Shown: piece by piece, positions 28,494-60,634 of the stretch
Layout of the letters: every line of letters starts with the position of its first letter
Numbering within the stretch: position 1 is the first letter of the stretch
From: Deltaproteobacteria bacterium
GTDB lineage: Bacteria > Desulfobacterota > GWC2-55-46
DNA length: 64,000 bases
Reading direction: 5' to 3'
NCBI GenBank assembly: GCA_016177845.1
Contig: JACOUO010000014.1
Coordinates: forward strand, 187,005 to 251,004
Position numbers and translations under genes: made by a program
Notes under the pieces: model-generated
Seen by the model: only the letters and a program-made list of their open reading frames with translations
The model's database searches: none
Told to the model about the DNA's origin: nothing

Positions 28494-28525
28494 CGGCTGT
28501 CGAGAAATTCGGCAGCCGTTTTTTG
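28494..28525 (+). terminator. rho-independent terminator
   Basis: CGGCTGTCGagaaattCGGCAGCCG followed by ttttttg. Confidence 0.75.
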
Positions 28526-28529
28526 ATAT

Positions 28530-40179: not shown

Positions 40180-40740
40180 CTCCCCTCCCTTGATGGGAGG
40201 GGATAAAGGGGAGGGTGAAAGTGAAAAAACCTCACTCCAGCCCTCTCTCTCGTCAGTCGTCATTCCCGAATGTCTCTATCGGGAATCTACTTAAAAATAC
40301 TGGATTCCCGCTTTCGCGGGAATGACAGATTATGGAATAATCTATCTGTGAGAACAGAGCGAAGCAATCTATTTTCTTCACCTCCTGCGCCATCGGGGGT
40401 TTTAAGAACAAAAACTAAATTCTTTTATTCTGATTTTAGATCTTGTCTTGTTTTTAAAACACCACACCAAGGGGCATTGCGTAGAGAGCATAAAGGAGAG
40501 GAAGAGAGCGGGAATTAGTATCTGTTAGCGAACGGAGTCCAATGCCCCGAGGAGCGAACCCGCTGTTCGCAAAAGTAAAATAGCAGAAGCGTTAATAGGC
40601 AGAGGAGTTGATGAGTTTGCTTCTCGCAACTGGCCAAGCAGTCGTCATTGCGTACTTGAAGTAATCTGTCTTTGCTGGGAGGAAATAAAGGGGAGGGTGA
40701 TGCAGTCAGTGCAGGGATTTCAGCCCTGAGCAACCCGCTT
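40180..40740. repeat. mosaic intergenic repeat block
   Basis: Module E at 40185-40230 and 40670-40710. Module A pair at 40255-40330 (gtcattcccgaatgtctctatcgggaatctacttaaaaatactggattcccgctttcgcgggaatgac). Module F and module B in reverse complement at 40455-40585. Confidence 0.85.
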
Positions 40741-43496: not shown

Positions 43497-44366
43497 ATGA
43501 GTATGAAATCTGAATCCATTACAATTAATTCTTTTAATGAATATATTGACATTGTTAATCGGTCAATGGGGAATATTTGTTTATTCCGGGGGCAAGTAGA
43601 AGATTTAGAATTACTTCCAAAAATAGCAAGACCTGAATGTATCGGTCTTTTTCAAAACCAAAGATTTATAGAGTCTTGGAAAAAAACAATTCCGGCTTTG
43701 CCGTCTAAAGATCTAAGTAACTTATTAAATGACGAAGAGCTTCCGATAACTAAACCAACTAAAGAAATGAAAAAATATCAGAAAGATTTTCTGTTATTTG
43801 AAATGAAAATGTTTTCAGAATTCTGCAGAGCATCAATTCCATATTTAAATGGTAAAATACCAAATGGTAAGTGGGAATGGCTCACATTAGCACAACACCA
43901 TGGTTTGCCAACTCGATTATTAGATTGGACGAAAAACCCCTTAATAGCATTATGGTTTGCAGTGCAGGACTCTTCAAAAATGTCTGAAGCTGAACAAAAA
44001 AGGTCTTCAACTTATGGTGTTGTTTGGCAATTCAATCCCAAAAATTCAGATTTTTTAAACACGTTGAAAGATAAAACTCCATTTTCATTAAAAAGAACAA
44101 AAATTTTTGAGCCAAATCATATATCACAGAGAATTGTCGCTCAATCCGCTTGTTTTACAGCACATAAATACTTAAATGATCGTGGTTTTATTTCTCTTAT
44201 TAGAAACAAATTCTATAAAGATAGATTATTTAAAATTATTATACCTTATAATAGATTTCCTATTTTAAAAAAGAGCCTTTCACATTTCGGCATAAATTCT
44301 GCTACACTTTTCGCCGATTTAGACAATCTTTGTAGAAATATTATTGAAGTGTACACTCCTGAATAG
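43497..44366 (+). CDS. FRG-domain protein, in an AT-rich island
   Basis: Contains the FRG-domain pattern GNICLFRGQ...LLP plus downstream WEWLTLAQHHGLPTRLLDWT (the Phe-Arg-Gly motif region). Local GC is about 32-35% versus ~48% in the flanks. Confidence 0.7.
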   Translation: MSMKSESITINSFNEYIDIVNRSMGNICLFRGQVEDLELLPKIARPECIGLFQNQRFIESWKKTIPALPSKDLSNLLNDEELPITKPTKEMKKYQKDFLLFEMKMFSEFCRASIPYLNGKIPNGKWEWLTLAQHHGLPTRLLDWTKNPLIALWFAVQDSSKMSEAEQKRSSTYGVVWQFNPKNSDFLNTLKDKTPFSLKRTKIFEPNHISQRIVAQSACFTAHKYLNDRGFISLIRNKFYKDRLFKIIIPYNRFPILKKSLSHFGINSATLFADLDNLCRNIIEVYTPE

Positions 44367-44374
44367 CCTCTAAT

Positions 44375-44620
44375 CTAATCTTTTTGCGAACTGGGTTCGC
44401 TCCTCGGGGTATTGGCTCCCGGCTACCGAGTTCGTTCTCTAATCAAGCCGTCATTCCCGACTGTCTCTATCGGGAATCGAGTATTGTAGTATTTTAGTAT
44501 TGTAGAGTGGGCTGTGCCACCAAATGTTCTTATAAAAGAGCGTTGTTGCTAAAAACAAGACAGAATACAAAATATTTCCCTCCTTTATCGGGATGATAAA
44601 GGGAAGGGTGAAAAGTGAAA
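44375..44620. repeat. mosaic intergenic repeat block
   Basis: Module B (44385-44440), module A (44440-44480), a module-D-like palindrome (44500-44520) and module E (44575-44615). Confidence 0.8.
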
Positions 44621-45598: not shown

Positions 45599-46072
45599 TT
45601 AATAGCCGACATGGCATGAGGCGCATAATCTGAGGTAATCCACCCTTAACATCTTGGGATATCTGGACTTGTTGTGCGGGTCATGGCATGTATAGCAGAC
45701 CATCTCTCCGTCATCGGTTAAAGGCAGTTTAGCCGGAATTTTAATCTTGGGCATCTTGCCGATAGGATGCCTGGTAACCGGATGATTGGTCATATTCCCC
45801 GGATGGCATTTGGCGCATGTCGTAACCGGGTCAAAGCTGAGCCTCGGGGGCTCGCTCCCATGGCAGACTGAACAGGTGCTGTCATCATAATAGTTATGAG
45901 GATTGGCGCTTACCTGTCCCTCTTCTTCGGAATAAGCTGTTCCCGGATTTGTGATTCCGAGAACGGGCAAAAAGATAAGAAGTGCAAGAATAAGAATCGG
46001 GTTTATCAGGGCGCCTCTCCAATGGAACCGTTTTTTAAAAATTCTTTTACCTGAGGATTTATTCGGGTCCAT
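45599..46072 (-). CDS. tetraheme c-type cytochrome, N-terminal membrane anchor
   Basis: Four CxxCH motifs (CSVCH, CAKCH, CYTCHDPHN, CASCH) and a TM helix at residues ~20-40. Confidence 0.8.
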   Translation of the reverse strand: MDPNKSSGKRIFKKRFHWRGALINPILILALLIFLPVLGITNPGTAYSEEEGQVSANPHNYYDDSTCSVCHGSEPPRLSFDPVTTCAKCHPGNMTNHPVTRHPIGKMPKIKIPAKLPLTDDGEMVCYTCHDPHNKSRYPKMLRVDYLRLCASCHVGY

Positions 46073-46174: not shown

Positions 46175-48397
46175 CTAATTTGCGCAGGTCGAAACCGTAT
46201 TGCAGTTGTAAGTTGCCGTAACTCCGATAAAGTTTGTGAAGTTATAATTGCAGACCTTATCTGTGGCCGGTGTCACGGACCTGAAGTTCATCTCTACGCC
46301 CGTAGATGTAGTGGCCCGCTTGTGTGATTCCACGCAAGCGCCGTTCATGAGCCTGTAGCCGAGCGGGTCAGAGCCCGCAAGCGCGCCTGCAGCGGCATTG
46401 CTTCCGTGAACGCCCTTCATGACATTATTTATAGAGTCATAGCTTCCGCCATGGCATGAGAGGCAGAGTATGCCGAATTTGTTGCTGTTATTGCCTGTGT
46501 TGGACCCTGCGGTATAGAAAGGCGAACTTGTGCCAAGCCCGTCAACAGGGTGCGGAACCCTTGAGAAGTTGGCGTTCGGGCCGACATAGCCTTCATCTCC
46601 GTAGACATCTCTTCTGTGGCAGTTATAGCAGAAGTTGACAAGCGAGCCTGAGCCGGTCTGGTTCTTGTTAAGTATCCACTTCTGGTCTGAACCATGCGCG
46701 CCTTTAGGGTCGGCTGTAACGCTTGAAGAATGGCAGTCAGTGCAGGTCGAGGTGCTGTCATGCGTTACATTGAAGAACCCTGTCCTCTGGCCGACACCCG
46801 GGAAGTCAACATACCTGAATGTATTTGTCAGTCCAAGGTTATTTGCAGGCCAGTTCGGATTTGCCGATACGAAAGGCTGGTTCTTGCCCTGCGCGAACAC
46901 GGGGTGGTAGCTCATGTTATTTACATTGAAGTCCGCCGTCGGGTCTGACTGCAGGACGAGCGAACCGTCCGCATTGCCTGAGGGCACGCTCGGGTTTGTA
47001 ACGCCATAAGAATAGTAGGAATGGCACTTTATGCAGAGATAACCTTCAAGGTTATCTGAGCCGGGTGTCAATGAATTGAAATCCGTTACCGTGTATGTAA
47101 GCGCCTGATTGCCTGCTGAAGGCCATGCAGAGGGCTTCACGCCCCAGCTTCCGAGCACATTCGGAGCTATGATGTTGCCATTGACGCCGCCTATGGTATG
47201 GTTGCCGGATTTTGTGGCGTGTGAGTTATGGCAATCCGCGCACTCTGCGTGCCTGTTATTGCCGAGGTTTGCCGCTGACTCCCTCGCGGGCTCGCCCGGG
47301 CTCTGCCTTGAGGCTATATGAGAGCCGTAGGTGCCTTTTATATTATGTTTGTATAAATAGCTGAACTGAGGCTCCACATCTTTTGATGTTACATTCCCGT
47401 TATGGCAGTTAAGACAGGTCCATTCCTCATCAACTGTCTGCGATGTGGCGGGGTTTATCCCTTTGAGAAGGGATTTCCCTGCTGTGCCGTTATGAGAGCG
47501 ATGGCACGCAAGGCAGCTCTGCATCTGAGGCGTATCATCTGAAAAGCCTGCTGAGCCCATGTCTTCATGCCATGGGTTTACGCCATTGCCGTTCCATGTT
47601 GCCGTAGATGTTTTATGGATTGACGGATTTGTCTCCCAGAATCTCTTTTCATGGCAGTTAAGACAGAGCACGCCGCTTTCAAGCGAGCTTACCATGAATT
47701 TGGGATAAGCTGTCCCGTGCGGGTCATGGCAGCTGGTGCACTGTATCCTTCCTGAGCTGTCAACCTTTACATTGGGCGGAAGCAGTGTGTCGGATTTTAT
47801 TTCCGGGTTTGACGGATATGCCAATGAATATTCAAATGATATAGGGTGGTCATCCTTTAAGTCCGTTCCTATGTAAGAAGTCGAGGCCGAAGTAAGCTTG
47901 CCTGCAGTGACTCCGGTGCCTGTGACAGAAAAAGTGCCTGCCAGTGTTTTACCCGGCTGATTTAGGAGTGAGCCAAGGGCGATTGTGCCGTCATGGCATG
48001 AGAGGCAAAGTTTTGATGAACCCGTGGGCTGGCCCAATGTAGGAGAGTTCGGGCTTAATGTGGCAGCCAGTGTCTGGCTTTCATATACATTATAGGTGGC
48101 TCCGGTATCCTGCTTGTTCCAGACAGGGCCTGAAGGTGCGGCATTGTGCGGTGTATGGCAGAATACGCATACTTCAGAGGTCTCTGTTGTCTTTACCGCA
48201 GCCGTAGAAAGGCTTCCGAGGTTATGCTTGGTGCCGGAAACGCTCGCCCAGAGCTGGGTGGAGGTAAATGCAATTGTAAGGCCGGCTGCCGAGACTGCCA
48301 GAGCGGCTGCCAGATGTCGTTTTGAGCAGGTACGCCTCGCAGATAAAAAAGCCTCCTTTAATTCAGAAAGGGAAGAAGGTAATTTTTTCTTTTTCAT
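46175..48397 (-). CDS. large (≥11-heme) Ser/Thr/Gly/Asn-rich multiheme c-type cytochrome, probably extracytoplasmic or cell-surface
   Basis: Eleven CxxCH motifs, many with a CxxCHxxHN extension. Low-complexity S/T/G/N-rich composition. Signal-anchor AALAVSAAGLTIAFTS. The start is taken as the ATG at 48397 (MKKKKLP). The ORF extends to a TTG at 48445. Confidence 0.8.
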   Translation of the reverse strand: MKKKKLPSSLSELKEAFLSARRTCSKRHLAAALAVSAAGLTIAFTSTQLWASVSGTKHNLGSLSTAAVKTTETSEVCVFCHTPHNAAPSGPVWNKQDTGATYNVYESQTLAATLSPNSPTLGQPTGSSKLCLSCHDGTIALGSLLNQPGKTLAGTFSVTGTGVTAGKLTSASTSYIGTDLKDDHPISFEYSLAYPSNPEIKSDTLLPPNVKVDSSGRIQCTSCHDPHGTAYPKFMVSSLESGVLCLNCHEKRFWETNPSIHKTSTATWNGNGVNPWHEDMGSAGFSDDTPQMQSCLACHRSHNGTAGKSLLKGINPATSQTVDEEWTCLNCHNGNVTSKDVEPQFSYLYKHNIKGTYGSHIASRQSPGEPARESAANLGNNRHAECADCHNSHATKSGNHTIGGVNGNIIAPNVLGSWGVKPSAWPSAGNQALTYTVTDFNSLTPGSDNLEGYLCIKCHSYYSYGVTNPSVPSGNADGSLVLQSDPTADFNVNNMSYHPVFAQGKNQPFVSANPNWPANNLGLTNTFRYVDFPGVGQRTGFFNVTHDSTSTCTDCHSSSVTADPKGAHGSDQKWILNKNQTGSGSLVNFCYNCHRRDVYGDEGYVGPNANFSRVPHPVDGLGTSSPFYTAGSNTGNNSNKFGILCLSCHGGSYDSINNVMKGVHGSNAAAGALAGSDPLGYRLMNGACVESHKRATTSTGVEMNFRSVTPATDKVCNYNFTNFIGVTATYNCNTVSTCAN

Positions 48398-48441
48398 CTT
48401 AGCACCATCCGCTGCGGCCGTATTTTTCCTGCTGGGCAATA

Positions 48442-49545
48442 TCAATTCCCGTGATATTCAAAAACCTGAACCCTTTTGTTGTAAGAATCAGCTACATAAA
48501 CTTTATCTGCGCTGTCAATATATATGCCGGAAGGGCTCCAGAACTTTCCTGCCTCCCTGCCTACTGAGCCGAAATTCAGAAGGAAATTCCCGCTCCTGTC
48601 AAATATCTGCACTGTATCAAATATGGCATCAACAATATAAATATTCCCGTCATGGTCAACGGCAACACCCTTTGGCCTGCCTAAATCGCCTGTACCGTCG
48701 CCGTGCTTGCCTATTTTAGAGACGAATTTGCCATCCTTATCGAATATCTGTATCCTGAAATTCATTGTGTCAGTAACATAGAGCTCGTTTTTATTGTCGA
48801 TGAAGAGGTCGACCGGGTAGTTGAGCTCTCCATCTTTATCGCCCAATTTGCCAATCGTATTTACGAGGCCGCCTTTCAGGTCGTATACCCCTATATTATG
48901 CGAGCCTGTATCTGACACATAAAGGAGCTTATCCTGCCTGTTAATGGCAATTCCCGTCATCCTCTTGCCCTCGCCGATACTGCGAAGGTACTGGCCCTTC
49001 GGGCTGAAGACCAGGATCTTATTAAGGACAGAGTCCGTTATATAGATATTGTCTTCGCCGTCAACAGCCGCGGAGATAGGGGATTCGAGATACCGGTTAT
49101 CGTCAAGTTCGTCTATATAGCTGTATTTGCCGTTCTTGGCGTCGTATATGTGCACCCTTTTAAAAGCGGTATCGGCAACGATTATCCTTCCGGTGGAATC
49201 CGTTACAACTCCATAGGGTTTAATTATATCCTCAGATTTTGAACCGAGGACAAATTCTGCGAGTTTCTTGAAAAAGCCTTTATTCGCGCCTATGTCCGAG
49301 GGATTCGCTATTGTCGTTGAATAAGAGATCCTTGCCGGTTCCGGAGGGGACGGCCATATTATCGGCTTTGCCGCTAATTGCCGGTCTTCTTTTATGGGCT
49401 GAGAGCCGCAACCTGAAAATGAGAATAGAAATGCGCAAAGCGCAAGTCCCATGGACAAAGATGCGATGGCGCCTTTTTGAGAATTTTTTGCCGTATTCAC
49501 CTTTTGATTTCCAGACAGAGCTTTTTGCGGCTCAAGTGTGCTCAT
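48442..49545 (-). CDS. NHL-repeat six-bladed beta-propeller lipoprotein
   Basis: Lipobox FSFSGCGS. Six repeats of the NHL pattern (e.g. YVTDTMNFRIQIFDKDGKF, GVAVDHDGNIYIVDAIFDTVQIFD). Confidence 0.8.
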   Translation of the reverse strand: MSTLEPQKALSGNQKVNTAKNSQKGAIASLSMGLALCAFLFSFSGCGSQPIKEDRQLAAKPIIWPSPPEPARISYSTTIANPSDIGANKGFFKKLAEFVLGSKSEDIIKPYGVVTDSTGRIIVADTAFKRVHIYDAKNGKYSYIDELDDNRYLESPISAAVDGEDNIYITDSVLNKILVFSPKGQYLRSIGEGKRMTGIAINRQDKLLYVSDTGSHNIGVYDLKGGLVNTIGKLGDKDGELNYPVDLFIDNKNELYVTDTMNFRIQIFDKDGKFVSKIGKHGDGTGDLGRPKGVAVDHDGNIYIVDAIFDTVQIFDRSGNFLLNFGSVGREAGKFWSPSGIYIDSADKVYVADSYNKRVQVFEYHGN

Positions 49546-49561: not shown

Positions 49562-50173
49562 TTATTTCCTGTGGCAATACTGGCAGATATCCAGGCCCGC
49601 TGAGCGGAGCCGCATCGTAAAATCCGCGCCCCAGTCAGCCCTGCCTGTAAGGAGCCCTCTTTCATGAGGGTTATGGCAGGTGGCGCAGATGATCTTGCCT
49701 GATTTAGGGTCAAGCGGAAGTATTGTGGGTACATCTTTAAGAGAGATCCGCATGTTGGTGGCGATTGCGGATGAGGGGACCACGAGGTGGTCAGGAGCTG
49801 CATAGCCGCTCATCGTAACGCTTGCGCCCTCTGTTCCGGGATGCTTTTTGACAAGATGGCATCTCGTGCAGATCTCGTTCGGGTTGTCCTCGAAATGGAG
49901 CTGGACATCTTTAATGGAATGCTCTTTTTTAATATCTGGTATCTGCTTATGGCAGACCGTGCAGGTGCCCCAGAGTATCTCGCCCGCATCGTTAATCTGT
50001 TCGTGAGGGTTTATGATTGTGCCGAGGGCCTCTCCTCTTTCATAGGGAGGGGTGGTCTCTTTCGGGGGTTCCGGCGCCTTTTGCGCTGAAAATGAGACCC
50101 CGGCCATGAATATAAAAGCTCCCGCCAGAATGGCAGGTTTTAAGTACTTTCCGAAATTTCTGTGCATATTCAT
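49562..50173 (-). CDS. tetraheme c-type cytochrome, secreted; paralogue of 45599..46072
   Basis: Four CxxCH motifs (CTVCH, CTRCH, CATCHNPHE, CQYCH) and a signal peptide. Confidence 0.8.
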   Translation of the reverse strand: MNMHRNFGKYLKPAILAGAFIFMAGVSFSAQKAPEPPKETTPPYERGEALGTIINPHEQINDAGEILWGTCTVCHKQIPDIKKEHSIKDVQLHFEDNPNEICTRCHLVKKHPGTEGASVTMSGYAAPDHLVVPSSAIATNMRISLKDVPTILPLDPKSGKIICATCHNPHERGLLTGRADWGADFTMRLRSAGLDICQYCHRK

Positions 50174-50210: not shown

Positions 50211-51347
50211 TTACTTCGTGAATGAATAAATGCCGCCGTCTTCAGAGGTTATATATACCGCATTTTCAAAAACAACGGGTGAGGAATGTACGCCGCCGTT
50301 GGTTTGATACTTCCATGCCACTTCGCCTGCCTTCAGGTCTACCGCGTAAAGATAGCCGTCCTCACAGCCTACATAGAGGAGGCCGTTGCCGGAGACCGCC
50401 GGTGTGGAGTTTATTTCGGCAGGGAATTTATAATCAGCCGATTCTGTACCGTTTGCCTTATTGAATACCTTGATATGTCCGTTCTTAAACGCCATGTAGA
50501 GCTTGTCTTTGGTAATAACCGGGGAAGCATAGGCAATCTCGTTGTCCATGTTCTTTCTCCAGACAAATTTGCCGGTCTTTGCGTCCAGAGCGTATATAGA
50601 CCTGTCATATGAGGACACATAAATGATCCCGTCTTTTATGGCAGGGGATGAGTAGATGGCAGATTGAGTTCTTTTTGACCAGTTCCTTCCGCCGCTTTTG
50701 GCTGAAACCGAATATATCAGCCCGTTTTTGCCTGCGCCATAGATGGAGCCGTCCGAATAAGCCGGAGTGGCGTAAATGCCGCTGTATTTTTCGTAATCAG
50801 GCATCTTCATTCTCCAGGCGCGTTTGCCTGTTGAGAGATCTATGGCGTAGAGGTAGAGGTCTGATGAGCCGGCATATACCATGCCTTCGGCTACAAGCAG
50901 TGATGTCTGTACGGCGCCACCGGTATTGTGCTTCCATACGAGCTTTCCGGTTGCTGCCTCAACAGCATAGATGTTGCCGTCTTTTGAGCCGACAAGGACC
51001 TTATCTTCAAATACAGCCGGAGTCGAGACGATCTCTGCTTGCGTGGGGAAGCTCCAGAGCATATTCCCGGTTGCCGCGTCGATGGCATAGAGGTTTTTGT
51101 CATATGATGCCGCGTAAACGGTATTGTTGTTTACAACGGGGGAGGCGAATATGGCGCCTTTTGCCATGAACTTCCATTTAAGGGTAAGGGGAGGTACTGG
51201 GGCCTTTTCAGTATAAGATGAATGGGCCGGGGTTTTTAAGAACATTGGCCAGCTGTCGGCTTTTGCCTCAGCTGAAAAAAGGCCAAGGCCCAGTGAAAGG
51301 GCCAGTATGGTTATACTTTTTTGTATTGGGAATTTCTTAGGCTGCAT
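50211..51347 (-). CDS. PQQ-repeat (BamB-like) eight-bladed beta-propeller protein, secreted
   Basis: Signal peptide. Repeated A.Dg/a.TGk..W motifs (LYAIDAATGNMLWSF, IYAVEAATGKLVWKH, LYAIDLSTGKRAWRM, IYALDAKTGKFVWRK, LYAVDLKAGEVAWKY). Confidence 0.8.
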   Translation of the reverse strand: MQPKKFPIQKSITILALSLGLGLFSAEAKADSWPMFLKTPAHSSYTEKAPVPPLTLKWKFMAKGAIFASPVVNNNTVYAASYDKNLYAIDAATGNMLWSFPTQAEIVSTPAVFEDKVLVGSKDGNIYAVEAATGKLVWKHNTGGAVQTSLLVAEGMVYAGSSDLYLYAIDLSTGKRAWRMKMPDYEKYSGIYATPAYSDGSIYGAGKNGLIYSVSAKSGGRNWSKRTQSAIYSSPAIKDGIIYVSSYDRSIYALDAKTGKFVWRKNMDNEIAYASPVITKDKLYMAFKNGHIKVFNKANGTESADYKFPAEINSTPAVSGNGLLYVGCEDGYLYAVDLKAGEVAWKYQTNGGVHSSPVVFENAVYITSEDGGIYSFTK

Positions 51348-51360
51348 AGTTTCACCAGTT

Positions 51361-51963
51361 TTAAACCTTGAATTTTGAAAACTCCTGCGTAACCTCTCTC
51401 CTTACATTTGAGATCTGGCGGAGAACATCCGACAGTTCTGCTTTGGAAGGGGTCTTGTCAGAAGCCATGATGTTGTTGAGAGCCGTTATTTTCTCGTCTA
51501 TTACATTTGCAGACCTCTTAACTGAACGGAAACTTGCCCCAAGCGAGCCCAGCATTCCGTTAAAGACTTCAGGCAGGTCAATAGGCATTTTAATGGATAC
51601 TCTTTGAGTGAAATCCCCTTGAGCAGTTTTCCTGAGCGCCTCTCTGAAGCTCATCAGGGGAAGCTCGATGCGACGAGTAAGGTAATACCCTATAATGGCC
51701 GAGACCGCAATGATCGACGGTATGGTGATAGCGCTTAGTTTCCATATGATAGGAGCGGCTATCTCGGTAGTCGTCCTTATCTTAAGATGGATTCTATATA
51801 ACTCCGCTGAAAGTTCCCTGTCAATTAAAAAATATACGAAAAACAGGTTGAGCGCGAAGCCGAGCAGGACCGCTAAAGTAAAGCCCAGCACGAAATGCAA
51901 CTGTAGTCTTTTCTTTACGAAAAAATTGCGCCTTCTGTACTTTGGACGGGAATTTCTGCTCAT
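51361..51963 (-). CDS. small membrane protein: 2 TM + HAMP domain, no output domain
   Basis: TM1 at ~31-53, TM2 at ~93-112, then the HAMP pattern (LREALRKTAQGDFTQRVSIKMP...). 200 aa. Confidence 0.65.
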   Translation of the reverse strand: MSRNSRPKYRRRNFFVKKRLQLHFVLGFTLAVLLGFALNLFFVYFLIDRELSAELYRIHLKIRTTTEIAAPIIWKLSAITIPSIIAVSAIIGYYLTRRIELPLMSFREALRKTAQGDFTQRVSIKMPIDLPEVFNGMLGSLGASFRSVKRSANVIDEKITALNNIMASDKTPSKAELSDVLRQISNVRREVTQEFSKFKV

Positions 51964-52120
51964 ATGCGCCTATAAACTATCATAATTGAGGAGAATATTC
52001 AACCCGCTCAGATTTTAATACATCCATATTAAACCAGTATTAAAGCGGAATTAAGAGTTTAAAAAGCCTGTAACCGACAGAATATTATATCGGCAATACC
52101 GGAGCCGCCTTAAGTCCAAA

Positions 52121-52960
52121 TTATTTTACATGGCAGGCAAGGCACAAGGCGCTGCCTTCATTGCTTATGACAAGATCGAAATGCTGCTTGGAGTAAGGGT
52201 TATGACAGCTTCCGCAGCCTACGCCGCCGCCGAAGAGCTTTATCTGTGAAGGGAGTTCTTCAACCCTTCTGTAGGCGCCTTTATATTTACGCTTTGCCTC
52301 CAGATAGGAGACCCCTATTGGATGGCTTACGCCTATCTGGTTAGCGTCATGGAAAACGACATTGTCTACCCGCGTATCGGATGCTGATACCGCATCATGG
52401 CAGGAGAGGCATTTTATTGAAAGCTCATCAAGCACATTGCCAAGCTCCCATGCCACAAATTTAGAGCTGGTAGATGTAACTACATGGGCCGTGCCCATGG
52501 AGACCTTGTGCAAGTCATTTTCAAGGTCATTGTGGCATAACATGCAAAAACCCTGTCCGCCTGCGCTTGATCTTAAGTGGTACGCGCCCTTGCCCGGGTT
52601 ATGCGCCGGGTGGCAGGATATACAGGTCAGGTCGCCTTTCCAGTTAAGCGGGAAGCTTGCCGGAACCTGCATGGAAGGGTTTATATCAACAGGATGGGAC
52701 AGTTCCTTCTGGCTCGAATGGCACTCGTAGCACATGAAAGATATATCTTTTTTAAATGCGCGGGGAGTCTCACCCGGCTGCGGCACTGTCAGGTGGCAAT
52801 CAAGGCACTTCCCCTCGAAATCATGGTAGCTCTCCCATTGGGAAGATACCAGTTTTCCGATAAGCAGGAGCGATATGAAGGCGGCTATGATAATAAAAGT
52901 GTTTTTTTTCACAAATCTATTCTTTGACTTTGATGCCTGAGGTGGCCCTTTTAAGTTCAT
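52121..52960 (-). CDS. heptaheme c-type cytochrome, membrane-anchored
   Basis: Seven CxxCH motifs (CLDCH, CYECH, CISCHPAHN, CMLCH, CLSCH, CGSCHNPY, CLACH) and an N-terminal signal-anchor. An alternative GTG start at 52912 lies immediately after the upstream stop. Confidence 0.8.
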   Translation of the reverse strand: MNLKGPPQASKSKNRFVKKNTFIIIAAFISLLLIGKLVSSQWESYHDFEGKCLDCHLTVPQPGETPRAFKKDISFMCYECHSSQKELSHPVDINPSMQVPASFPLNWKGDLTCISCHPAHNPGKGAYHLRSSAGGQGFCMLCHNDLENDLHKVSMGTAHVVTSTSSKFVAWELGNVLDELSIKCLSCHDAVSASDTRVDNVVFHDANQIGVSHPIGVSYLEAKRKYKGAYRRVEELPSQIKLFGGGVGCGSCHNPYSKQHFDLVISNEGSALCLACHVK

Positions 52961-53513
52961 TGAGCCCCATTTTTAAATCCGCTATGGCCTCTTTCAGGTC
53001 ATGGTCAGAGGGATTATCCTGCTTAAGCAGCACTGCAAGCCGTTCTTCAAATTTTTCGATATCCGACAGCGCATCACCGCAGCTTCTTACATTATGGTTC
53101 AGGTCGCGGACCATTTTATTTATATCATCTGCAAGGGCTACAAGCTGATCCTCTCCCCTGAACCTTGTATCTACAGTGAGGTCGCCGGAGCCTATCAATT
53201 TAAGGTTTTCTTCAATGCGGTATATGGGACCGGCAATTTTATGCGAGAACAGAACGGATATCGTAATGATGGCCGCCGTAATAAGCGCAAGCAGGGCTGT
53301 TGAGTAGAATGAGGCAAAGATAAGCGGAAATATCCTGATCTTCAGGTCATATATATTATAGATGGCCTGCCCGTACGAGCCGCCGAGCGTCCTTGCTGTC
53401 ATTAAATACAGAAATAGCGTTATGCCCAGCATGCCAGCGATTACAAAAAGGCAAAACCTTATTCCATATTTTAATTTAAAGGCTCTTTGCACAAGTCCCG
53501 AGTCTTTTGCCAT
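52917..53513 (-). CDS. small membrane protein: 2 TM + HAMP domain, paralogue of 51361..51963
   Basis: TM1 at ~20-42, TM2 at ~63-88, then HAMP (IGSGDLTVDTRFRGEDQLVALADDINKMVRDL). 198 aa. Confidence 0.65.
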   Translation of the reverse strand: MAKDSGLVQRAFKLKYGIRFCLFVIAGMLGITLFLYLMTARTLGGSYGQAIYNIYDLKIRIFPLIFASFYSTALLALITAAIITISVLFSHKIAGPIYRIEENLKLIGSGDLTVDTRFRGEDQLVALADDINKMVRDLNHNVRSCGDALSDIEKFEERLAVLLKQDNPSDHDLKEAIADLKMGLNELKRATSGIKVKE

Positions 53514-53739
53514 AGTTATCTCTCGCTGCCTGAGTCAAAGCGGTTTGGGTTATTTGTGTCTGAAATTGTTAAAAAAAACGGTGAGGAGGATTTTCTGGGT
53601 GCTGCAAAAGGGGTACTTAAAATCTTAAACAGGAATGTATTCATTTATTCATCCGTATTGGGGAACTTACTGTGTAAGAAAGTTTTTGTATTATATCGTA
53701 AAAAGATTTTTTTGTGAAGATTATTAAATGGATGCGAAA

Positions 53740-54620
53740 TCTGTTTAACTTCCTCCCTTAATGGGACGGGATAAATGAGAGAGGGAGAAAAATATTGCAG
53801 GGTGGGCTGTGACCACAGAATCTAATCTCAAAAGGTGTTTGTGCTGATTTACTTTTACGCCGGGCTTTAACTCTTCGGGGTATTGGCTCCGTTAGCTGTC
53901 GAGTCCGTTCGCTAATAAATACGAATGCCCGCTCTCTCCCTCTCCCCTGATCAAGCCGTCATTCCCGAATGTCTCTATCGGGAATCTACTTTTAAAATAC
54001 TGGATTCCCGCTTTCGCGGGAATGACAATTACTAAAACCTGTCATCGTGGGCAGGGCAAAGCAATCTGTTTGTCCCCCTCACCCCCAACCCTCTCCCACA
54101 AGGGGAGAGCTGGGAGCGACGCGAGAAGGCAATCGTTAATATTTTGTCTTTATAAAACCCCGAGGGCGTTAATGGTGCGTAAGGGAGGAAGGGTGAGCGA
54201 GCCGAGGCTGCGGGAGCGTAAGCGACCTAAGAAATGAACCGAGCGGATTGGGGAGGAGCGGGGTTGCGCATCCATTCGCCCGAAAGAGCCCGGCAGGGCG
54301 TTAAAGTTAAAACATCACAGAACTTCAAAAAAATGAGACTTGCAGTAAAGCGTTGTTGTTTATTAACTTTTGCGAACAGCGGGTTCGCTCCTCGCGGCAT
54401 TGGACTCCGTTAGCTGTCGAGTCCGTTCGCTAATAAATACCAATGCCCGCTCTCTCCCTCTCCTTTCCTTTATGCTCTCTGCGCAATGCCCCTTGGTGTG
54501 GTGTTTTAAAAACAAGACAGAACAAACAGAATCTGTCATTGCGAGCAAAGTGAAGCAATCTGTTTTTCATTTAGTATCCCCCTCCCTTGATTGCAAGGAG
54601 ATAAAGGATATGGGTGAGCT
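53740..54620. repeat. mosaic intergenic repeat block
   Basis: Module E-like (53745-53790), module D-like (53800-53820), module B (53858-53940 and 54365-54450), module A pair (53942-54030), module C (54160-54320) and module F (54470-54525). Confidence 0.85.
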
Positions 54621-54832: not shown

Positions 54833-55867
54833 ATGGCAAATGAGACATTTTTAAAGGCGTGCCGCAGGGAGCAGACCGACTATACCCCAGTGTGGCTCAT
54901 GAGGCAGGCAGGCCGTTACATGAAGGAATACATGGCAATAAGGGAGAAGCATTCTTTTATAGAGATGTGCAAGAAGCCTGAGATAGCCTGTGAAGTTACC
55001 CTGCAGCCCGTCAAGGCTTTTGAGCTTGACGCCGCCATTATCTTTGCCGACATCCTCCTTCCGCTTGAAGGCATGGGTATCAACTTCGAGTTCGCAAAGA
55101 ACGAAGGCCCTGTAATCAGAAATCCCGTTAGGAACAGAAAAGACATAGACGCAGTAAAGGTCATCAATCCTGAAGCTGATGTGCCGTATCTCCTTGAAGC
55201 CATAAAGCTTGTCAAAAAAGAGCTTAACGGCAAGGTGCCCCTTATCGGCTTTTCAGGCGCGCCGTTCACGCTGGCAAGCTACATCATCGAGGGCGAGGGC
55301 TCACGCAACTACATCAACACCAAAAAGCTCATGTACACAGACCCTGAGGGCTGGAAGATACTCATGGACAAGATAGCCGATGTAGTTATCGTCTATCTCC
55401 AGGCGCAGGCAAAGGCTGGCGCGCAGGTCCTGCAGCTCTTTGACAGCTGGGTCGGCTGCTTAGGCCCCGATGACTTCAGGGAATATGCTCTGCCCTATAC
55501 AAAAAGGGTTATCGATACCATCAAAAAGACAACGGATGTGCCTGTTATCAACTTCGGCACAAATACCGGCACATACTTAAATCTTGTAAAACAGGGCGGC
55601 GGCGATGTCATCGGCGTTGACTGGAAGGTCAGGCTCGATGAAGCATGGAAGACTATCGGCTATGAACACTCCATTCAGGGAAACCTTGACCCTGTAGTCC
55701 TCTTCAGCAATCCTGCTACCATCAGGAAGAGGGTAAAGGAAATAATCGACATGGCAGAAGGCAGGCCCGGACATATCTTCAACCTCGGCCACGGCATCAT
55801 CCTTGGCACGCCGGTTGATAATGTAAGGGCGGTTATCGACAGCGTGCACGAGTTCTCAAAAAGATAA
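54833..55867 (+). CDS. hemE: uroporphyrinogen decarboxylase
   Basis: N-terminal PVWLMRQAGRYMPEY-type signature (here PVWLMRQAGRYMKEY) and a full-length 344-aa URO-D fold. Confidence 0.9.
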   Translation: MANETFLKACRREQTDYTPVWLMRQAGRYMKEYMAIREKHSFIEMCKKPEIACEVTLQPVKAFELDAAIIFADILLPLEGMGINFEFAKNEGPVIRNPVRNRKDIDAVKVINPEADVPYLLEAIKLVKKELNGKVPLIGFSGAPFTLASYIIEGEGSRNYINTKKLMYTDPEGWKILMDKIADVVIVYLQAQAKAGAQVLQLFDSWVGCLGPDDFREYALPYTKRVIDTIKKTTDVPVINFGTNTGTYLNLVKQGGGDVIGVDWKVRLDEAWKTIGYEHSIQGNLDPVVLFSNPATIRKRVKEIIDMAEGRPGHIFNLGHGIILGTPVDNVRAVIDSVHEFSKR

Positions 55868-55935
55868 ATTTTAAGCAAACCCTTCCTGGCCTTGCCTCGG
55901 AAGGTTTCACACATAAATAAAATTCGAGGTTAAAG

Positions 55936-56859
55936 ATGACTTCTACTCCAAAAGGTGTTCTGCTCCTTGCTTTCGGCGGGGCTGACTCCATTGAAAGCGT
56001 CGAGCCCTTTGTAAAAAATGTGCTTAAGGGCAGGCCCGTTACCCCTGAGCTTATTGAAAAGACCAAAGAACGGTATAAGCTCATCGGCGGCAAATCGCCT
56101 CTTCTTGGTTTGACGATTGAGCAGGGCAAGGCCATTGAGAAGCTCATGAACAAGGACGGAGGCAATTATAAAGTTTATGTCGGGATGCGCTACTGGCACC
56201 CGTTCATCAAAGAGACCTTAAGCCAGATGAAGGCAGACGGCATAAAAGAGGCTGTTGCGGCCATCATGGCCCCGTTCACATCCCTTGTCGCCACAGGCGG
56301 ATACGAAAAGGATGTAGAGAGCGCGCTTGCGGAGCTGGATGGCGAGCCCAAGGTAGAGTTCATCCCCCGTTGGAACATGAAGCCCCTTTTTCTTGATGCC
56401 GTAGCTGAGAAGCTGGCTGAGCAGTTAAAGTATTTTGACGACCCTAATGACGCGCTTGTCATATTCAGCAATCACAGTCTTCCCCTGGGCGCGCTTGAAG
56501 GCGACCCTTACGAGATGATAATCAACCAGAGCGCCAATGAGATTGCCAAAAAATTCGGCAAGCTGGACTACAAGGTGTCTTACCAGAGCAGGGGCGCAGG
56601 CCCGCGCGAATGGCTTGGCCCGCAGACAGAGGACATAATCCAGCAGGCAAAGAAAAAAGGCAAAAAAGGCGTCATCATAGTTCCGCTTGGTTTTGTAGCT
56701 GACCATGTCGAAACTCTCTACGATATAGACATCCTCTTTAAAGGCATGGCAGAGCAGCAGGGACTTGAATTCAGAAGGACCGCTTCATTAAATGATTCGC
56801 CCAAGCTCATGGAACTGATGGCCGACCTTCTCGTTAAACTGGCTGAAAAAAGACAATGA
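55936..56859 (+). CDS. hemH: ferrochelatase (likely coproporphyrin ferrochelatase, given the hemE-hemH-hemY order)
   Basis: Ferrochelatase N-terminus (GVLLLAFGGADSIESVEPFVKNVL) and a 307-aa length. ATGA overlap with the downstream hemY. Confidence 0.85.
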   Translation: MTSTPKGVLLLAFGGADSIESVEPFVKNVLKGRPVTPELIEKTKERYKLIGGKSPLLGLTIEQGKAIEKLMNKDGGNYKVYVGMRYWHPFIKETLSQMKADGIKEAVAAIMAPFTSLVATGGYEKDVESALAELDGEPKVEFIPRWNMKPLFLDAVAEKLAEQLKYFDDPNDALVIFSNHSLPLGALEGDPYEMIINQSANEIAKKFGKLDYKVSYQSRGAGPREWLGPQTEDIIQQAKKKGKKGVIIVPLGFVADHVETLYDIDILFKGMAEQQGLEFRRTASLNDSPKLMELMADLLVKLAEKRQ

Positions 56860-58286
56860 AAAAAGTGGTAATAATAGGGGGCGGCATAGCAGGACTTGCC
56901 GCCGCTTACAGCTTAAGAGAACACCAGACCCCAGACACGCCTGATTTCGAGATTATCCTTCTTGAAAAGAATAACAGGCTTGGCGGGAACATCCGCACGG
57001 AAAAGACAGACGGCTTCCTTATAGAAGGCGGGCCGGACTGCTTCATTTCAGAAAAACCCTGGGCAATGGAGCTGTGCAAGAGGATCGGCCTCGGGGATAA
57101 GATACTCCCTACAAATGAGGGCGGAAAGACCTATGTGCTTTCAGGCGGAAAGCTGCACATCCTTCCTGACGGCGTTATTTTGATGGTACCAACCAAGATG
57201 CTCCCGCTTGCCACAAGCACCCTTATCTCATGGGCCGGCAAGATAAGAATGGCCTCCGAGATATTCGTGCCAAAGAAAAAAGGCAGGGAAGATGAGACCC
57301 TTGGCCAGTTCGTAAGGAGAAGGCTTGGGCAGGAAGCCCTTGATAAGATAGCCGAGCCGCTTGTGGCCGGAGTCCATGCCGGAGACCCTGAGACCATGTC
57401 TGTCAGGGCGAGCTTCCCTAAGTTCGTCCAGCTTGAGGAGGAGTACGGAAGCCTCATCAAAGGCATGATAAAGAGGATGGAACTCCTTAAAAAGACACAT
57501 AAGCCTCAAGCCTCAGCAGGGCCTAAGAAAAAGGTCACGATGTTCATGACCCTCAAAGACGGCCTCTCTGAAATGATAGATACGCTGACAACCATTCTCT
57601 TAAAAACAAATACCCGCATTGAAAAGGGTGTGGCAGTTACAGGCGTCACAAAAAAGAACAACGGTTATGAAGTCGCTCTCGATGGGGGCAAGTCAATTGA
57701 GGCTGACGCTGTAGTTATTGCCGCGCCTGCTTATGCCGCGGCAAATGTGCTCAGCAGGTTTGACGCTGACCTGTCACAGAAGCTCCTTACAATCCCGTAT
57801 GTCTCAACGGCTACCGTTTCGATTGCCTTTAAAAAGAGCGATGTGAAACATCCGTTGAACGGCTTTGGTTTTGTTGTGCCGAAGATAGAAAAAAGAAGGA
57901 TAATGGCTGCCACATGGACTTCGCGCAAGTTCAGCTTCCGCGCCCCTGATGATACTGTTTTAATCAGGTGCTTTGTTGGCGGCTCAAAGAATATGGAGCT
58001 TGTGAACCTGAGTGACCCTGAAATGATAAAGATGGTCAAGGAAGAACTCAGGGATACGATGGGCATAACCGCCGAGCCTGTCCTTGTCAAGGTCTTCAGG
58101 TGGATAAACTCCATGCCGCAATACACTGTTGGCCATGAGGACAGGATTAAATGGATTGAGGAGAGGCTCGCAAATCATCCGGGGCTTTACCTTACAGGCA
58201 GCGCTTACCACGGCATCGGCATCAGCGACAGCATCCGCATAGGCGAGGTAGTCGCAAAGAAGATTCTCCATCAGTTAAAAAATTAA
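56856..58286 (+). CDS. hemY: protoporphyrinogen/coproporphyrinogen III oxidase (HemY/CgoX family)
   Basis: FAD dinucleotide-binding motif VVIIGGGIAGLAAAY, a 476-aa length, and the HemY-family C-terminal region. Confidence 0.85.
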   Translation: MKKVVIIGGGIAGLAAAYSLREHQTPDTPDFEIILLEKNNRLGGNIRTEKTDGFLIEGGPDCFISEKPWAMELCKRIGLGDKILPTNEGGKTYVLSGGKLHILPDGVILMVPTKMLPLATSTLISWAGKIRMASEIFVPKKKGREDETLGQFVRRRLGQEALDKIAEPLVAGVHAGDPETMSVRASFPKFVQLEEEYGSLIKGMIKRMELLKKTHKPQASAGPKKKVTMFMTLKDGLSEMIDTLTTILLKTNTRIEKGVAVTGVTKKNNGYEVALDGGKSIEADAVVIAAPAYAAANVLSRFDADLSQKLLTIPYVSTATVSIAFKKSDVKHPLNGFGFVVPKIEKRRIMAATWTSRKFSFRAPDDTVLIRCFVGGSKNMELVNLSDPEMIKMVKEELRDTMGITAEPVLVKVFRWINSMPQYTVGHEDRIKWIEERLANHPGLYLTGSAYHGIGISDSIRIGEVVAKKILHQLKN

Positions 58287-58501: not shown

Positions 58502-60634
58502 ATGGGCGAAAAAATATTCAGGGTTATTTGGGGTGACTGGCGGTTCAGATTGTCAATAGGGACGAAAAGCCTCTTGGCTTTCCTGCTTATAATCAGCGTG
58601 CTTGCCGGTGGGTTTTATTATTTCACGAGCAATACGCTGGCCGACAGGATTGAGAAAGACGCCCTTGGTGAAATTGACCTGAAACTTAAAGGAGCCTGGA
58701 GGCTCTATTATACAAGAACCGAGCAGATGAAGCTCGGCATGCTTCAGGCAGGCAGTGAAGATGCCGTTAAAACGGCATTCGAGAGAGCAGATTCCATATT
58801 CCTGAGAAAACTTCTGAATGATTACACTATCCCGAGGCCTTATGTAAGCCTGTGGCTTGCGGTTGACGGCAACCAGAGGATAATCGGCAGAAGAAATGGC
58901 AATACAGGTGATTTTGTTGAGATAAACGGCCTTATAGCCAAGGCCTTGAGCACAGGCCAGTCCATCATATCGACAGAGTCGGTAACAAGGGAGTTCCTTA
59001 CAAAGGAAGATACCGTACTTGCTTCAAGAGTCGATACGGCAGGGCTCATGCAGGTAGTCGTGACCCCTGTTGAATCCAGGGGCAGGATTGTCGGCGCGTT
59101 CGTATCAGGCATACTCCTTAACAGGTATGACTGGCTGCCTAATTCCATTTTCGAAAGTTTCCATATTAATTCTGCCTTATTTACCGCGACAAACCAGGAA
59201 TCGAGGGTAATAGCATCTACCCTGCGTCCAAAAAGTATTTTCAATCCACTTGATGTCCTTCCCGAACAGGTCACCAAATCCATGGCTTCCAACAGGAAGT
59301 TTGTCGGCAGTTCCACCCTTGATAACACTGATGTGTATATCGGCGCTGAGCCCATCCTCAATTATGAAGGCGATGTGATAGGCGGGCTTGCCGTTGGTAT
59401 CTACAACTCAGAGGTAAAGCGATATGTGGACTCAACCGAGAAGAGCATTGTGATGTTCGCAGGCATAGGAGTGCTCTTCAGCATTCTTCTGGCATTCTTC
59501 GTTTACAGGGATACAGCAAAGCCCATAGCCGCCATCACAGGCGCGATGGATGAGATATCAAAGGGAAACCTTGAGGTAAGGGTCGAGATAAAGACAAAGG
59601 ATGAGTTTGAGAATATAGGCGAGGGGCTTAATCAGATGGTCAACTCCATCCGCATAAGGGAGGAGAGGCTTGACCGCTTTAACGAGCTTTCCAAGATACT
59701 TTTGGAGTATAACGACCCCGAGGAGCTTCTTGATAAGGCCCTTACAAGGATGATAGAGCTTACTGATTCCAACATGGGTGTCGTATATATTCATGATGAT
59801 AAGAATGAATCACTGAAGCCGCTTGCCTCATACGGCGTGGGCGAAGAGGAGCTTAAGAAGCTTAAAGTAGGCGAGGGGCTTGCAGGCAAATGCGCTTCAG
59901 AAAGAAAGACCATAATCCTTCAGGACATAACAGACGCGAACCTTTCCCTTGAGACAGGCTTTTCAAAGTTCAGGCCCTCAGGCCTTGTTTACTTCCCGAT
60001 GAATTACAAGGAGCATCTCAACGGCGTTTTTGTGATAGGCAGTCTTTCTCCGTATATTGAGGATGAGATAAAGCATCTTGAGCATCTTGTGACCCAGATA
60101 GCCATAGCGCTTGATAACGCGCTTACGCATCAGGAGATTGAAAAGCTCTCCGTCTCAGACCCGCTTACCGGCATCTACAACAGGAGGCATTTCATAGAGC
60201 TTCTTGAGAATGAGTTCACGGCAGCCAAGAGATACAAGTACATACTTGGCATCATGATGATAGATATAGATGATTTCAAGTTTATCAATGATAACTTCGG
60301 GCACCAGCAAGGGGACAGGGTTATAGTTGAGGTCAGCAGGATAATGCGCGATAAGACGCGCTCAACGGATACCTGGGGCAGGTACGGAGGAGAAGAGTTC
60401 ATAGGGTTTGCCTCTCACTGCGGGATGGAGGGTATGACCATCCTTGCAGAGAAGATAAGGAAGGGCATTGAGGATTTTGACTTCCCGAGCATGAATGGCA
60501 GAAGGGTAACGGTCAGTATCGGCGTAGCCTTCTTCCCGAGCGAAGGAGTAAAAGATCTTGAGGACCTTATCAAGTCGGCGGATGAGAACCTTTATAAGGC
60601 AAAAAGGAGCGGCAAGAACAGGGTAGTGGTGTGA
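58502..60634 (+). CDS. diguanylate cyclase: periplasmic sensor domain, TM, HAMP, GAF and GGDEF
   Basis: Two TM segments flank a ~270-aa periplasmic region. HAMP (AITGAMDEISKGNLEVRV), then a GAF-like domain, then a GGDEF domain with the RYGGEEF active site. Confidence 0.85.
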   Translation: MGEKIFRVIWGDWRFRLSIGTKSLLAFLLIISVLAGGFYYFTSNTLADRIEKDALGEIDLKLKGAWRLYYTRTEQMKLGMLQAGSEDAVKTAFERADSIFLRKLLNDYTIPRPYVSLWLAVDGNQRIIGRRNGNTGDFVEINGLIAKALSTGQSIISTESVTREFLTKEDTVLASRVDTAGLMQVVVTPVESRGRIVGAFVSGILLNRYDWLPNSIFESFHINSALFTATNQESRVIASTLRPKSIFNPLDVLPEQVTKSMASNRKFVGSSTLDNTDVYIGAEPILNYEGDVIGGLAVGIYNSEVKRYVDSTEKSIVMFAGIGVLFSILLAFFVYRDTAKPIAAITGAMDEISKGNLEVRVEIKTKDEFENIGEGLNQMVNSIRIREERLDRFNELSKILLEYNDPEELLDKALTRMIELTDSNMGVVYIHDDKNESLKPLASYGVGEEELKKLKVGEGLAGKCASERKTIILQDITDANLSLETGFSKFRPSGLVYFPMNYKEHLNGVFVIGSLSPYIEDEIKHLEHLVTQIAIALDNALTHQEIEKLSVSDPLTGIYNRRHFIELLENEFTAAKRYKYILGIMMIDIDDFKFINDNFGHQQGDRVIVEVSRIMRDKTRSTDTWGRYGGEEFIGFASHCGMEGMTILAEKIRKGIEDFDFPSMNGRRVTVSIGVAFFPSEGVKDLEDLIKSADENLYKAKRSGKNRVVV

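Follow-up and report, generated by a model that had tools for sequence, protein, structure and literature searches.

Two paralogous membrane proteins of about 200 residues, HAMP-A and HAMP-B, were found to be encoded on either side of a heptaheme c-type cytochrome gene in a 64,000-nucleotide (nt) stretch of a Deltaproteobacteria bacterium genome (GenBank assembly GCA_016177845.1, contig JACOUO010000014.1, positions 187,005 to 251,004 of the forward strand). This whole stretch is referred to as the window, and all coordinates are counted from its first letter. The three genes stand at the head of a nine-gene operon of the OmcE nanowire type, their arrangement is fixed among orthologous loci, and the same trio was found elsewhere as a stand-alone module and in linkage with signalling genes. 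The first-pass annotation of the window had proposed that the two proteins might be split sensor components or structural membrane anchors. The former idea became the best-supported reading, although a tentative one that falls somewhat short of probable: HAMP-A, the cytochrome and HAMP-B may form one membrane-associated unit, a split redox sensor, whose output would be a separate cytoplasmic protein. The trio comprised the following genes.

52917..53513, minus strand: HAMP-A, 198 amino acids (aa); transmembrane (TM) segment TM1 at ~20-42, periplasmic loop at ~43-62, TM2 at ~63-90, HAMP at ~91-140, helical hairpin at ~141-198
52121..52912, minus strand: heptaheme c-type cytochrome, 263 aa counted from the GTG at 52912; the longest open reading frame (ORF) runs from the ATG at 52960
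51361..51963, minus strand: HAMP-B, 200 aa, paralogue of HAMP-A with like architecture; invariant His59 at the tip of the periplasmic loop

Both minus-strand ORFs were present at 52917-53513 and 51361-51963 as first annotated, and their paralogy was confirmed by BLASTP (23% identity over the full length, E 3e-6) and, between the two ortholog sets, by profile-profile comparison (98.8% probability, E 5e-17, 181 columns). Hydropathy analysis revealed two hydrophobic segments in HAMP-A and two in HAMP-B, in agreement with the two-TM architecture originally described. The abundance of K/R at the two N-termini points to an N-in orientation, which would place HAMP in the cytoplasm. The periplasmic loops, about 20 residues in HAMP-A and about 28 in HAMP-B, did not qualify as an extracytoplasmic sensor domain. 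AlphaFold2 models were obtained from 26-sequence alignments with a mean predicted local distance difference test (pLDDT) score of 77 for HAMP-A and 75 for HAMP-B, and the helices were placed at residues 5-41, 47-108, 125-164 and 170-191 of the former and 18-58, 65-114, 130-167 and 174-196 of the latter. Both models begin with a long TM1 and a short turn; one continuous helix then starts in the periplasm, spans the membrane as TM2 and passes into the first HAMP helix, and after a connector and another long helix the chain turns into a final helix that folds back. The connector between the HAMP helices AS1 and AS2 comprised 12-16 residues in the two models, which gave a helix-connector-helix arrangement directly after the last TM segment.

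The HAMP identity was secure at the family level and sub-threshold for the window pair, and withstood the alternative of a non-HAMP coiled-coil family. The Pfam HAMP model PF00672 aligned with residues 89-139 of HAMP-A over model positions 2-52 of 53 at 18.1 bits, below the cut-off of 25, and HAMP-B was without a match to it. In 45 diverse relatives, Pfam HAMP was detected at E<0.01 in 36 (best E 1.4e-12), and a precomputed PF00672 match was carried by many orthologues. In NCBIfam both proteins aligned to the TM2+HAMP stretch of histidine kinases and methyl-accepting chemotaxis proteins (MCPs), and the ortholog profiles matched the TM2-HAMP of Tsr and PcaY in the PDB (E 1e-5 to 4e-5). Residues P96, G110 and D122 of HAMP-A were invariant in 26 orthologues, with P96 and G110 also invariant in the 45 diverse relatives, and HAMP-B retained an LPL motif, GD(F/L) with invariant D117, and an ELP..FN.M motif.

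The two proteins had been described as HAMP-only. This held in so far as no recognisable output domain was present, but a C-terminal helical hairpin of about 55 residues had been overlooked. Beyond HAMP and generic coiled coil, no output domain was found in the Pfam, NCBIfam and PDB profile searches. The hairpin, the best-predicted segment of the HAMP-A model (pLDDT 92-96), matched no known domain in Pfam, NCBIfam, PDB profiles or Foldseek; with the HAMP-A model as query, Foldseek returned nothing from the PDB at E<=0.001 and only generic helical hairpins. The public database label “methyl-accepting chemotaxis protein” was rejected, as PF00015 was absent from HAMP-A, HAMP-B and the 45 relatives scanned and only about 55 residues follow HAMP; the label appears to stem from the HAMP match alone. 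Among orthologues the periplasmic loops were the most conserved region (mean column identity 0.78 in HAMP-A and 0.84 in HAMP-B) and the C-terminal hairpins the least conserved (0.52 and 0.47, respectively). An invariant Tyr47 and other near-invariant aromatic residues were observed in the loop of HAMP-A.

Word-indexed searches returned 88 relatives of HAMP-A and 52 of HAMP-B, nearly all of 190-215 aa and often on the same contigs, from metagenome-assembled genomes (MAGs) of uncultured “Deltaproteobacteria”/Thermodesulfobacteriota. A genome scan with one genome per species gave 320 relatives, and 80 loci were kept. The fixed arrangement with the heptaheme gene was upheld: an ORF with 6-7 hemes began within 120 nt of 26 of the 28 A-type genes having enough downstream sequence, and in one more locus (L011) the heptaheme and B genes lay further downstream, so that a cytochrome was present in 27 of the 28 A-type loci. 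B came after the cytochrome in each of those 27 loci of sufficient length, and the short contig of L016 stopped before B. The order of A, 6-7 heme ORF and B was held down to 35-40% identity. All nine genes of the operon were found in unchanged order in three relatives (L001, L003 and L004), with wholly different flanks in L003.

Seven CXXCH motifs were counted in the cytochrome between HAMP-A and HAMP-B, which agreed with its designation as heptaheme. The cytochrome gene had been reported to overlap that of HAMP-A, and the positions were correct, with the ATG at 52960 lying 44 nt inside HAMP-A and the GTG at 52912 lying 4 nt past the HAMP-A stop, but the overlap itself is likely an ORF-calling artefact. 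The longest cytochrome ORF started -8 to +8 nt from the HAMP-A stop in 22 of 26 orthologous loci, and a longer upstream extension like that in the window was seen in only 4 of the 26; thus the GTG at 52912 is probably the real start and the 44-nt overlap most likely arose from taking the longest ORF. Judged from these sequences, the conserved feature is the tight coupling of the HAMP-A and cytochrome genes, not an overlap. The orthologous cytochromes open with a short basic stretch and a hydrophobic segment. The hydrophobic N-terminus closes with V-x-S ahead of Q-W, may be either a cleavable signal peptide or an anchor, and precedes the conserved motif W-x-SYHDF-x3-CxxCH. A heme lacking its distal ligand, suppliable by His59 of HAMP-B, was also considered and rejected, as seven conserved non-CXXCH His were available for seven hemes. 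In L085 (4938-6341) HAMP-A and the heptaheme cytochrome were called as one 467-aa protein, in which the signal peptide would act as a third TM segment in a workable topology. This fusion was set aside as a probable indel artefact, as many genes on that contig were broken and the two ORFs lay a few nt apart.

Outside the orthologous clade, the trio occurred alone, with no other cytochrome near, in two Nitrospirae MAGs (L041 and L055) and in L089. In L041 it was divergent from a REC protein and an HDOD protein, and in L089 it lay near a histidine kinase and a sigma54 response regulator. Adjoining A-type and B-type genes with a triheme cytochrome were found in L079 between two putative kinase/response-regulator pairs. 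Single-copy members of the family (hereafter mini-HAMPs, as for the family at large) were paired with a small cytochrome in L032, L033 and L091, and in L090 between rplM and rpsI. The gene order was CheA-CheW-367 aa-tetraheme-miniHAMP in L092 and MCP-362 aa-tetraheme-miniHAMP-CheB-CheR-CheY-HDOD-PAS/GAF kinase in L034. This chemosensory variant (L034, 1445-8876; L092, 369-5609) has three genes between cheA-cheW and cheB-cheR-cheY-HDOD, for a mini-HAMP, a tetraheme cytochrome and an exported but unannotated protein of ~365 aa, and the cluster suggests a cytochrome-based input to the Che pathway. The partner cytochromes had in common an N-terminal (N)PH-x5-10-CxxCH motif just past the signal sequence.

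In a rough neighbour-joining tree without support values, the A-type and B-type proteins of different lineages fell into two separate groups, which suggested an old A/B duplication with lasting pairing. A-type and B-type genes occurred together in at least three lineages, suggesting that A and B work as a pair. In the AlphaFold2 model, His59 of HAMP-B was located at the flexible apex of the periplasmic hairpin. Counted over members that are related and are not independent events, the loop His was present in 24/24 B orthologues and 6/6 distant cytochrome-linked members not of A-type, and absent from 48/48 non-cytochrome members among the genome loci. It was also present in 25 of about 140 top representatives, related in the same way, and 4 of the 5 with readable context adjoined a cytochrome. 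The loop His as a perfect marker of cytochrome linkage was rejected, as L088 has the His beside SurA-like and HExxH genes.

The wider family was very large. When 1.84 billion cluster representatives were searched with a profile, 11,533 matched at E<=1e-3 and 1,359 clusters of 50% identity did so at E<=1e-10; the best 150 matches were almost all 180-215 aa with full-length alignment. Among the genome loci, relatives were found in MAGs labelled Omnitrophota, Planctomycetia, Spirochaetota, Nitrospirae/Nitrospirota, Elusimicrobia/Elusimicrobiota, Bdellovibrionota, Latescibacterota and others. The first-pass annotation had named two findings that would count against it, a non-HAMP identity and homologues occurring without cytochromes. 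HAMP identity stood, but linkage did not extend across the family, since most members in other phyla were without a multiheme ORF within 5 kb. Cytochrome linkage is thus a property of particular subfamilies and not of the whole family. Recurrent neighbours elsewhere were a TPR-PDZ protein in Planctomycetia MAGs, a HEAT-repeat protein in Spirochaetota MAGs and an upstream gene for a SurA_N-like lipoprotein together with a downstream one for a small exported HExxH protein; the common theme was that the mini-HAMP gene directly adjoins one whose product is exported. In L040, L045, L056, L058, L083 and L088 (Omnitrophota and other MAGs), the genes for a SurA_N-like lipoprotein, a mini-HAMP and a ~185-aa exported HExxH protein form a conserved unit of three. 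The HExxH protein had no Pfam match, and in L088 a CHASE2-cyclase gene came after the unit.

In the window, HAMP-A was the first of nine tightly spaced minus-strand ORFs running from 53513 down to 44691, with intergenic distances of -44 to +157 nt. The remaining genes of the operon, its candidate promoter and the nearest signalling gene were as follows.

50211..51347, minus strand: secreted PQQ/BamB-like beta-propeller, 378 aa
49562..50173, minus strand: tetraheme cytochrome, 203 aa
48442..49545, minus strand: NHL-repeat six-bladed beta-propeller lipoprotein, 367 aa; lipobox FSGC
46175..48445, minus strand: undecaheme cytochrome, 756 aa from the first possible start; 11 CXXCH; residues 52-267 (window 47645-48292) homologous to OmcE
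45599..46072, minus strand: second tetraheme cytochrome, 157 aa
44691..45626, minus strand: hexaheme cytochrome, 311 aa; two c7-type triheme (“nanowire_3heme”) domains; closes the operon
53690..53718, minus strand: sigma-70-like promoter match, TTCACA-17-TATAAT, 11/12, ~175 nt upstream of HAMP-A; candidate operon promoter
58502..60634, plus strand: dCache-HAMP-GAF-GGDEF diguanylate cyclase, divergent, beyond hemE-hemH-hemY

All nine operon products were exported or membrane proteins according to Pfam, NCBIfam and sequence features, and no gene for a kinase or other cytoplasmic output was found in the nine-gene operon by the Pfam and NCBIfam searches. The number of sigma-70-like promoter matches in the region was not above chance. 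For the tetraheme cytochrome at 49562-50173, no sequence relative was found in the PDB. The diguanylate cyclase was the only signalling gene near the operon; its position was conserved in L001, L004 and L085, and it may be regarded as a candidate downstream partner only.

The first-pass annotation spoke of a respiratory locus; its character as an OmcE-type nanowire cluster had gone unseen. Residues 52-267 of the undecaheme cytochrome matched the whole OmcE subunit (PDB 7TFS, residues 10-232; E 6.5e-25), including four CxxCH and the N-terminal TKHxL motif, and also the nanowire-like entry 9yuq (E 4.4e-20). The entry 7TFS is OmcE (PMC12954529). The OmcE-like part forms the N-terminal quarter of the 756-aa protein and is fused to ~490 aa with seven hemes; as a domain family it gave 4,614 matches. 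OmcE clusters have been described as encoding, besides the OmcE subunit and a large beta-barrel, two beta-propeller lipoproteins and two multiheme cytochromes (bioRxiv 10.1101/2025.10.22.684050). In Tenderiales, the uet cluster brings together an undecaheme, a tetraheme and c7 triheme cytochromes with a beta-barrel, two NHL propellers, a cupredoxin and a prolyl isomerase (bioRxiv 10.1101/2022.05.06.490989). The window operon resembles the OmcE cluster of Geobacter and Desulfuromonas in its OmcE-homologous tetraheme module, two beta-propellers and four other multiheme cytochromes, and the uet cluster in its undecaheme and c7-type triheme domains. It lacks a large beta-barrel, a peptidyl-prolyl isomerase and a cupredoxin; no ORF for a large outer-membrane beta-barrel was found between 44691 and 53513 or in the orthologous clusters L001, L003 and L004. 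Moreover, the OmcE-type subunit is not free in the window but fused to the seven-heme region. The mini-HAMP trio belongs to the window operon and is not part of the descriptions of the OmcE or uet clusters. The mini-HAMPs as a general component of OmcE clusters were also considered and rejected: the genes were absent from two typical OmcE-type loci (L086 and L087), and the trio is therefore an addition particular to the clade of the window.

Given these arrangements, a mechanism can be proposed for the split redox sensor. The exported cytochrome would act as the input module by contacting the short conserved periplasmic loops of HAMP-A and HAMP-B, which we infer to pair as a heteromer with a parallel four-helix HAMP bundle. 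If the cytochrome altered its redox state or its ligand state, the TM helices, TM2 in particular, would relay that change to the HAMP domain and hairpin in the cytoplasm. As neither of these carries an enzymatic output, they would act on another protein that binds them. At the head of an OmcE-type operon for extracellular electron transfer, the unit might report the redox load of the electron path. This reading was favoured because the trio is conserved, stands alone beside signalling genes and has relatives in Che clusters, because the loops are the most conserved region and the loop His tracks cytochromes, and because the heme-binding HAMP receptor CHH, described below, sets a precedent. Several observations weigh against it. 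The weak conservation of the C-terminal hairpin speaks against it as a highly specific interface, the linkage to signalling genes is circumstantial and such genes are common in these genomes, and most of the wider mini-HAMP family is unconnected with cytochromes. The loop His also occurs outside the cytochrome-linked members (L088), and the heptaheme cytochrome, with seven conserved non-CXXCH His for its seven hemes, requires no ligand from HAMP-B. In addition, the diguanylate cyclase is absent from L003, no cytoplasmic partner could be named, and L018 is an orphan A-type gene on a short contig with neither cytochrome nor B.

The features of the trio were also considered under a structural role, which was judged rather unlikely. 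HAMP-A and HAMP-B would here be a dock or assembly factor, an inner-membrane receptor that holds the heptaheme cytochrome near a quinol-oxidising complex or a maturation/export machine, with HAMP and hairpin as a dimerisation scaffold that passes no signal. Such a role would fit the lack of an output domain, the high conservation of the loops and TM2 and the tightly coupled gene starts, which suggest co-assembly, and in other phyla the genes of relatives do adjoin those of exported proteins, SurA-like lipoproteins among them. Neither a quinol dehydrogenase nor a b-type cytochrome subunit is obvious in the operon, so that a contact point at the inner membrane would be needed. However, a HAMP signature that is invariant in HAMP-A (P96, G110, D122) and kept in the wider family is hard to square with a passive anchor, and the trio was found alone beside signalling genes and away from respiratory genes, with relatives lying between cheA/cheW and cheB/cheR. 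A generic envelope protein unrelated to redox, whose cytochrome neighbourhood reflects inheritance of one operon in the clade, seems improbable. The pairing with cytochromes recurs in separate family branches and phyla with 3-, 4- and 7-heme cytochromes, the loop residue co-varies with that pairing, and the partner cytochromes have the N-terminal (N)PH-x5-10-CxxCH motif in common, although most members of the very large family have no cytochromes nearby, SurA_N-like, PDZ, HEAT and small HExxH neighbours recur elsewhere, and the many loci of the orthologous clade represent one lineage and are not independent.

It is very doubtful that the mini-HAMPs themselves are redox-active, with the loop His (and Tyr in HAMP-A) binding heme or metal on the periplasmic side of their dimer as part of the electron path or as a sensing site. 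The His is invariant in HAMP-B and in cytochrome-linked single-copy members and lies at the flexible hairpin apex in the model, and Tyr47 with the near-invariant aromatics of the HAMP-A loop could be read in the same way, but an A/B pair would provide one His only, no known heme-binding motif was present, and L088 has the His without a cytochrome. A bolder extension of the split redox sensor, which we consider unlikely, is that A, B and the cytochrome represent a hitherto unrecognised, modular class of trans-membrane redox sensor. A soluble multiheme cytochrome would dock on two near-domain-less HAMP transducers, possibly by reversible ligation or hydrogen-bonding of the conserved loop His to heme, and the state of the nanowire-type extracellular electron path would in this way be signalled inward. 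Many phyla would employ this ~200-aa chassis with other periplasmic proteins (SurA-like, HExxH and PDZ), as a general family of receptors for a periplasmic partner.

Other features of the window were recorded around the operon. The heme-biosynthesis genes hemE (URO-D), hemH (ferrochelatase) and a hemY-type oxidase lie at 54833-58286 on the plus strand, divergently adjoining the cytochrome operon; like neighbours were found in L001, L004 and L085 and not in L003, and they could provide a coordinated heme supply for the 39-heme operon. The 1.1-kb spacer between HAMP-A and hemE was made of repeat modules and measured ~185-310 nt in relatives. Such interspersed modules, 35-210 nt long, 65-100% identical and in both orientations, formed mosaics in the intergenic spacers at ~1890-2200, 8800-9620, 13980-14190, 23670-24210, 28520-29125, 40180-40700, 44390-44490 and 53750-54570. 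One of them, the hairpin GTCATTCCCGAATGTCTCTATCGGGAATC, occurred in 9 direct and several inverted copies. No match to a riboswitch or known RNA reached the Rfam gathering score in the upstream spacer or the whole window, with only chance-level matches at E<=1, and no tRNAs were found in the window. An FRG-domain gene (43497-44366, plus strand; Pfam E 3e-21), oriented oppositely to the operon, stood between its last cytochrome gene and a DHH-CBS-polyA-polymerase gene; it was absent there in L001 and L004, interspersed repeats were present on its downstream side (44391-44491), and it looks like a local insertion. Tandem direct repeats at 36086-36955 (135-nt units x5 and 126-nt units x4) lay in the overlap of a ScpB ORF (36443-37546) and a pseudouridine synthase ORF (35341-37077), which suggests a repetitive low-complexity coding stretch.

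The sensing of the extracellular electron path in bacteria that respire minerals or electrodes is largely unknown, and a separable cytochrome-wired sensor unit would be a direct handle on it. If the proposed role is true, the trio is possibly a portable redox-sensing part. More than 1,000 clusters of output-less mini-HAMPs are annotated as “chemotaxis proteins” or “hypothetical”, and a role with adjacent exported partners, if shown, would correct a widespread mis-annotation and carry further the recent observation that a HAMP domain lacking its own output can signal through a protein bound to it in trans. With this locus, the OmcE nanowire subunit is also known in a form fused into an undecaheme cytochrome, from an uncultured groundwater lineage.

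The first-pass annotation had taken stand-alone HAMP proteins fixed inside a respiratory locus for an undescribed arrangement; output-less HAMP proteins as such are not undescribed, being known from Af1503 (PMC3585426) and CHH (bioRxiv 10.64898/2026.05.25.727664). CHH, the Cache_heme-HAMP receptor of Pseudomonas azotoformans, was described in 2026 and signals via a Ser/Thr kinase bound to its HAMP (bioRxiv 10.64898/2026.05.25.727664). In common with the proposed reading of the trio, CHH combines a c-type heme input in the periplasm with a TM region and a HAMP in the cytoplasm whose own chain has no enzymatic output, and its output is a separate protein that binds the HAMP. In contrast, its single heme sits in a Cache fold fused to the receptor, whereas the trio has a separate heptaheme cytochrome and two paralogous transducers with a near-zero periplasmic domain and a hairpin after HAMP, and its operon encodes neither a Ser/Thr kinase nor another partner. 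Af1503 of Archaeoglobus fulgidus, the prototype HAMP structure, is a TM protein ending in HAMP (PMC3585426). It is thus output-less like HAMP-A and HAMP-B, but the HAMP-A family profile matched the Af1503 HAMP chains at E 0.4-0.8 only, and Af1503 has no established homology to the mini-HAMPs beyond HAMP and no known cytochrome partner or paralogue pair.

The transducer HtrII takes its signal from a separate partner, sensory rhodopsin II, and not from a sensor domain of its own. It has two TM segments and HAMP as the mini-HAMPs do, and weak profile matches of the HAMP-A and HAMP-B families to HtrII were found; however, HtrII carries a full MCP domain controlling CheA and its partner is integral to the membrane, whereas the mini-HAMPs have no MCP domain and an exported cytochrome as partner. 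In Geobacter sulfurreducens, a metal-reducing deltaproteobacterium, GSU0582 and GSU0935 place a periplasmic c-type heme sensor in a TM-HAMP chemoreceptor (PMC3460858). In these, a complete MCP carries one heme in a fused PAS-like domain, whereas the trio has a separate multiheme protein and no MCP domain. A search of open-access papers and bioRxiv preprints returned no description of two near-domain-less paralogous HAMP transducers with a multiheme cytochrome between them. Compared with these known systems, the combination of paired HAMP transducers and an interposed multiheme cytochrome, which stands by itself in some genomes and opens a nanowire-type operon in others, appears to be undescribed.

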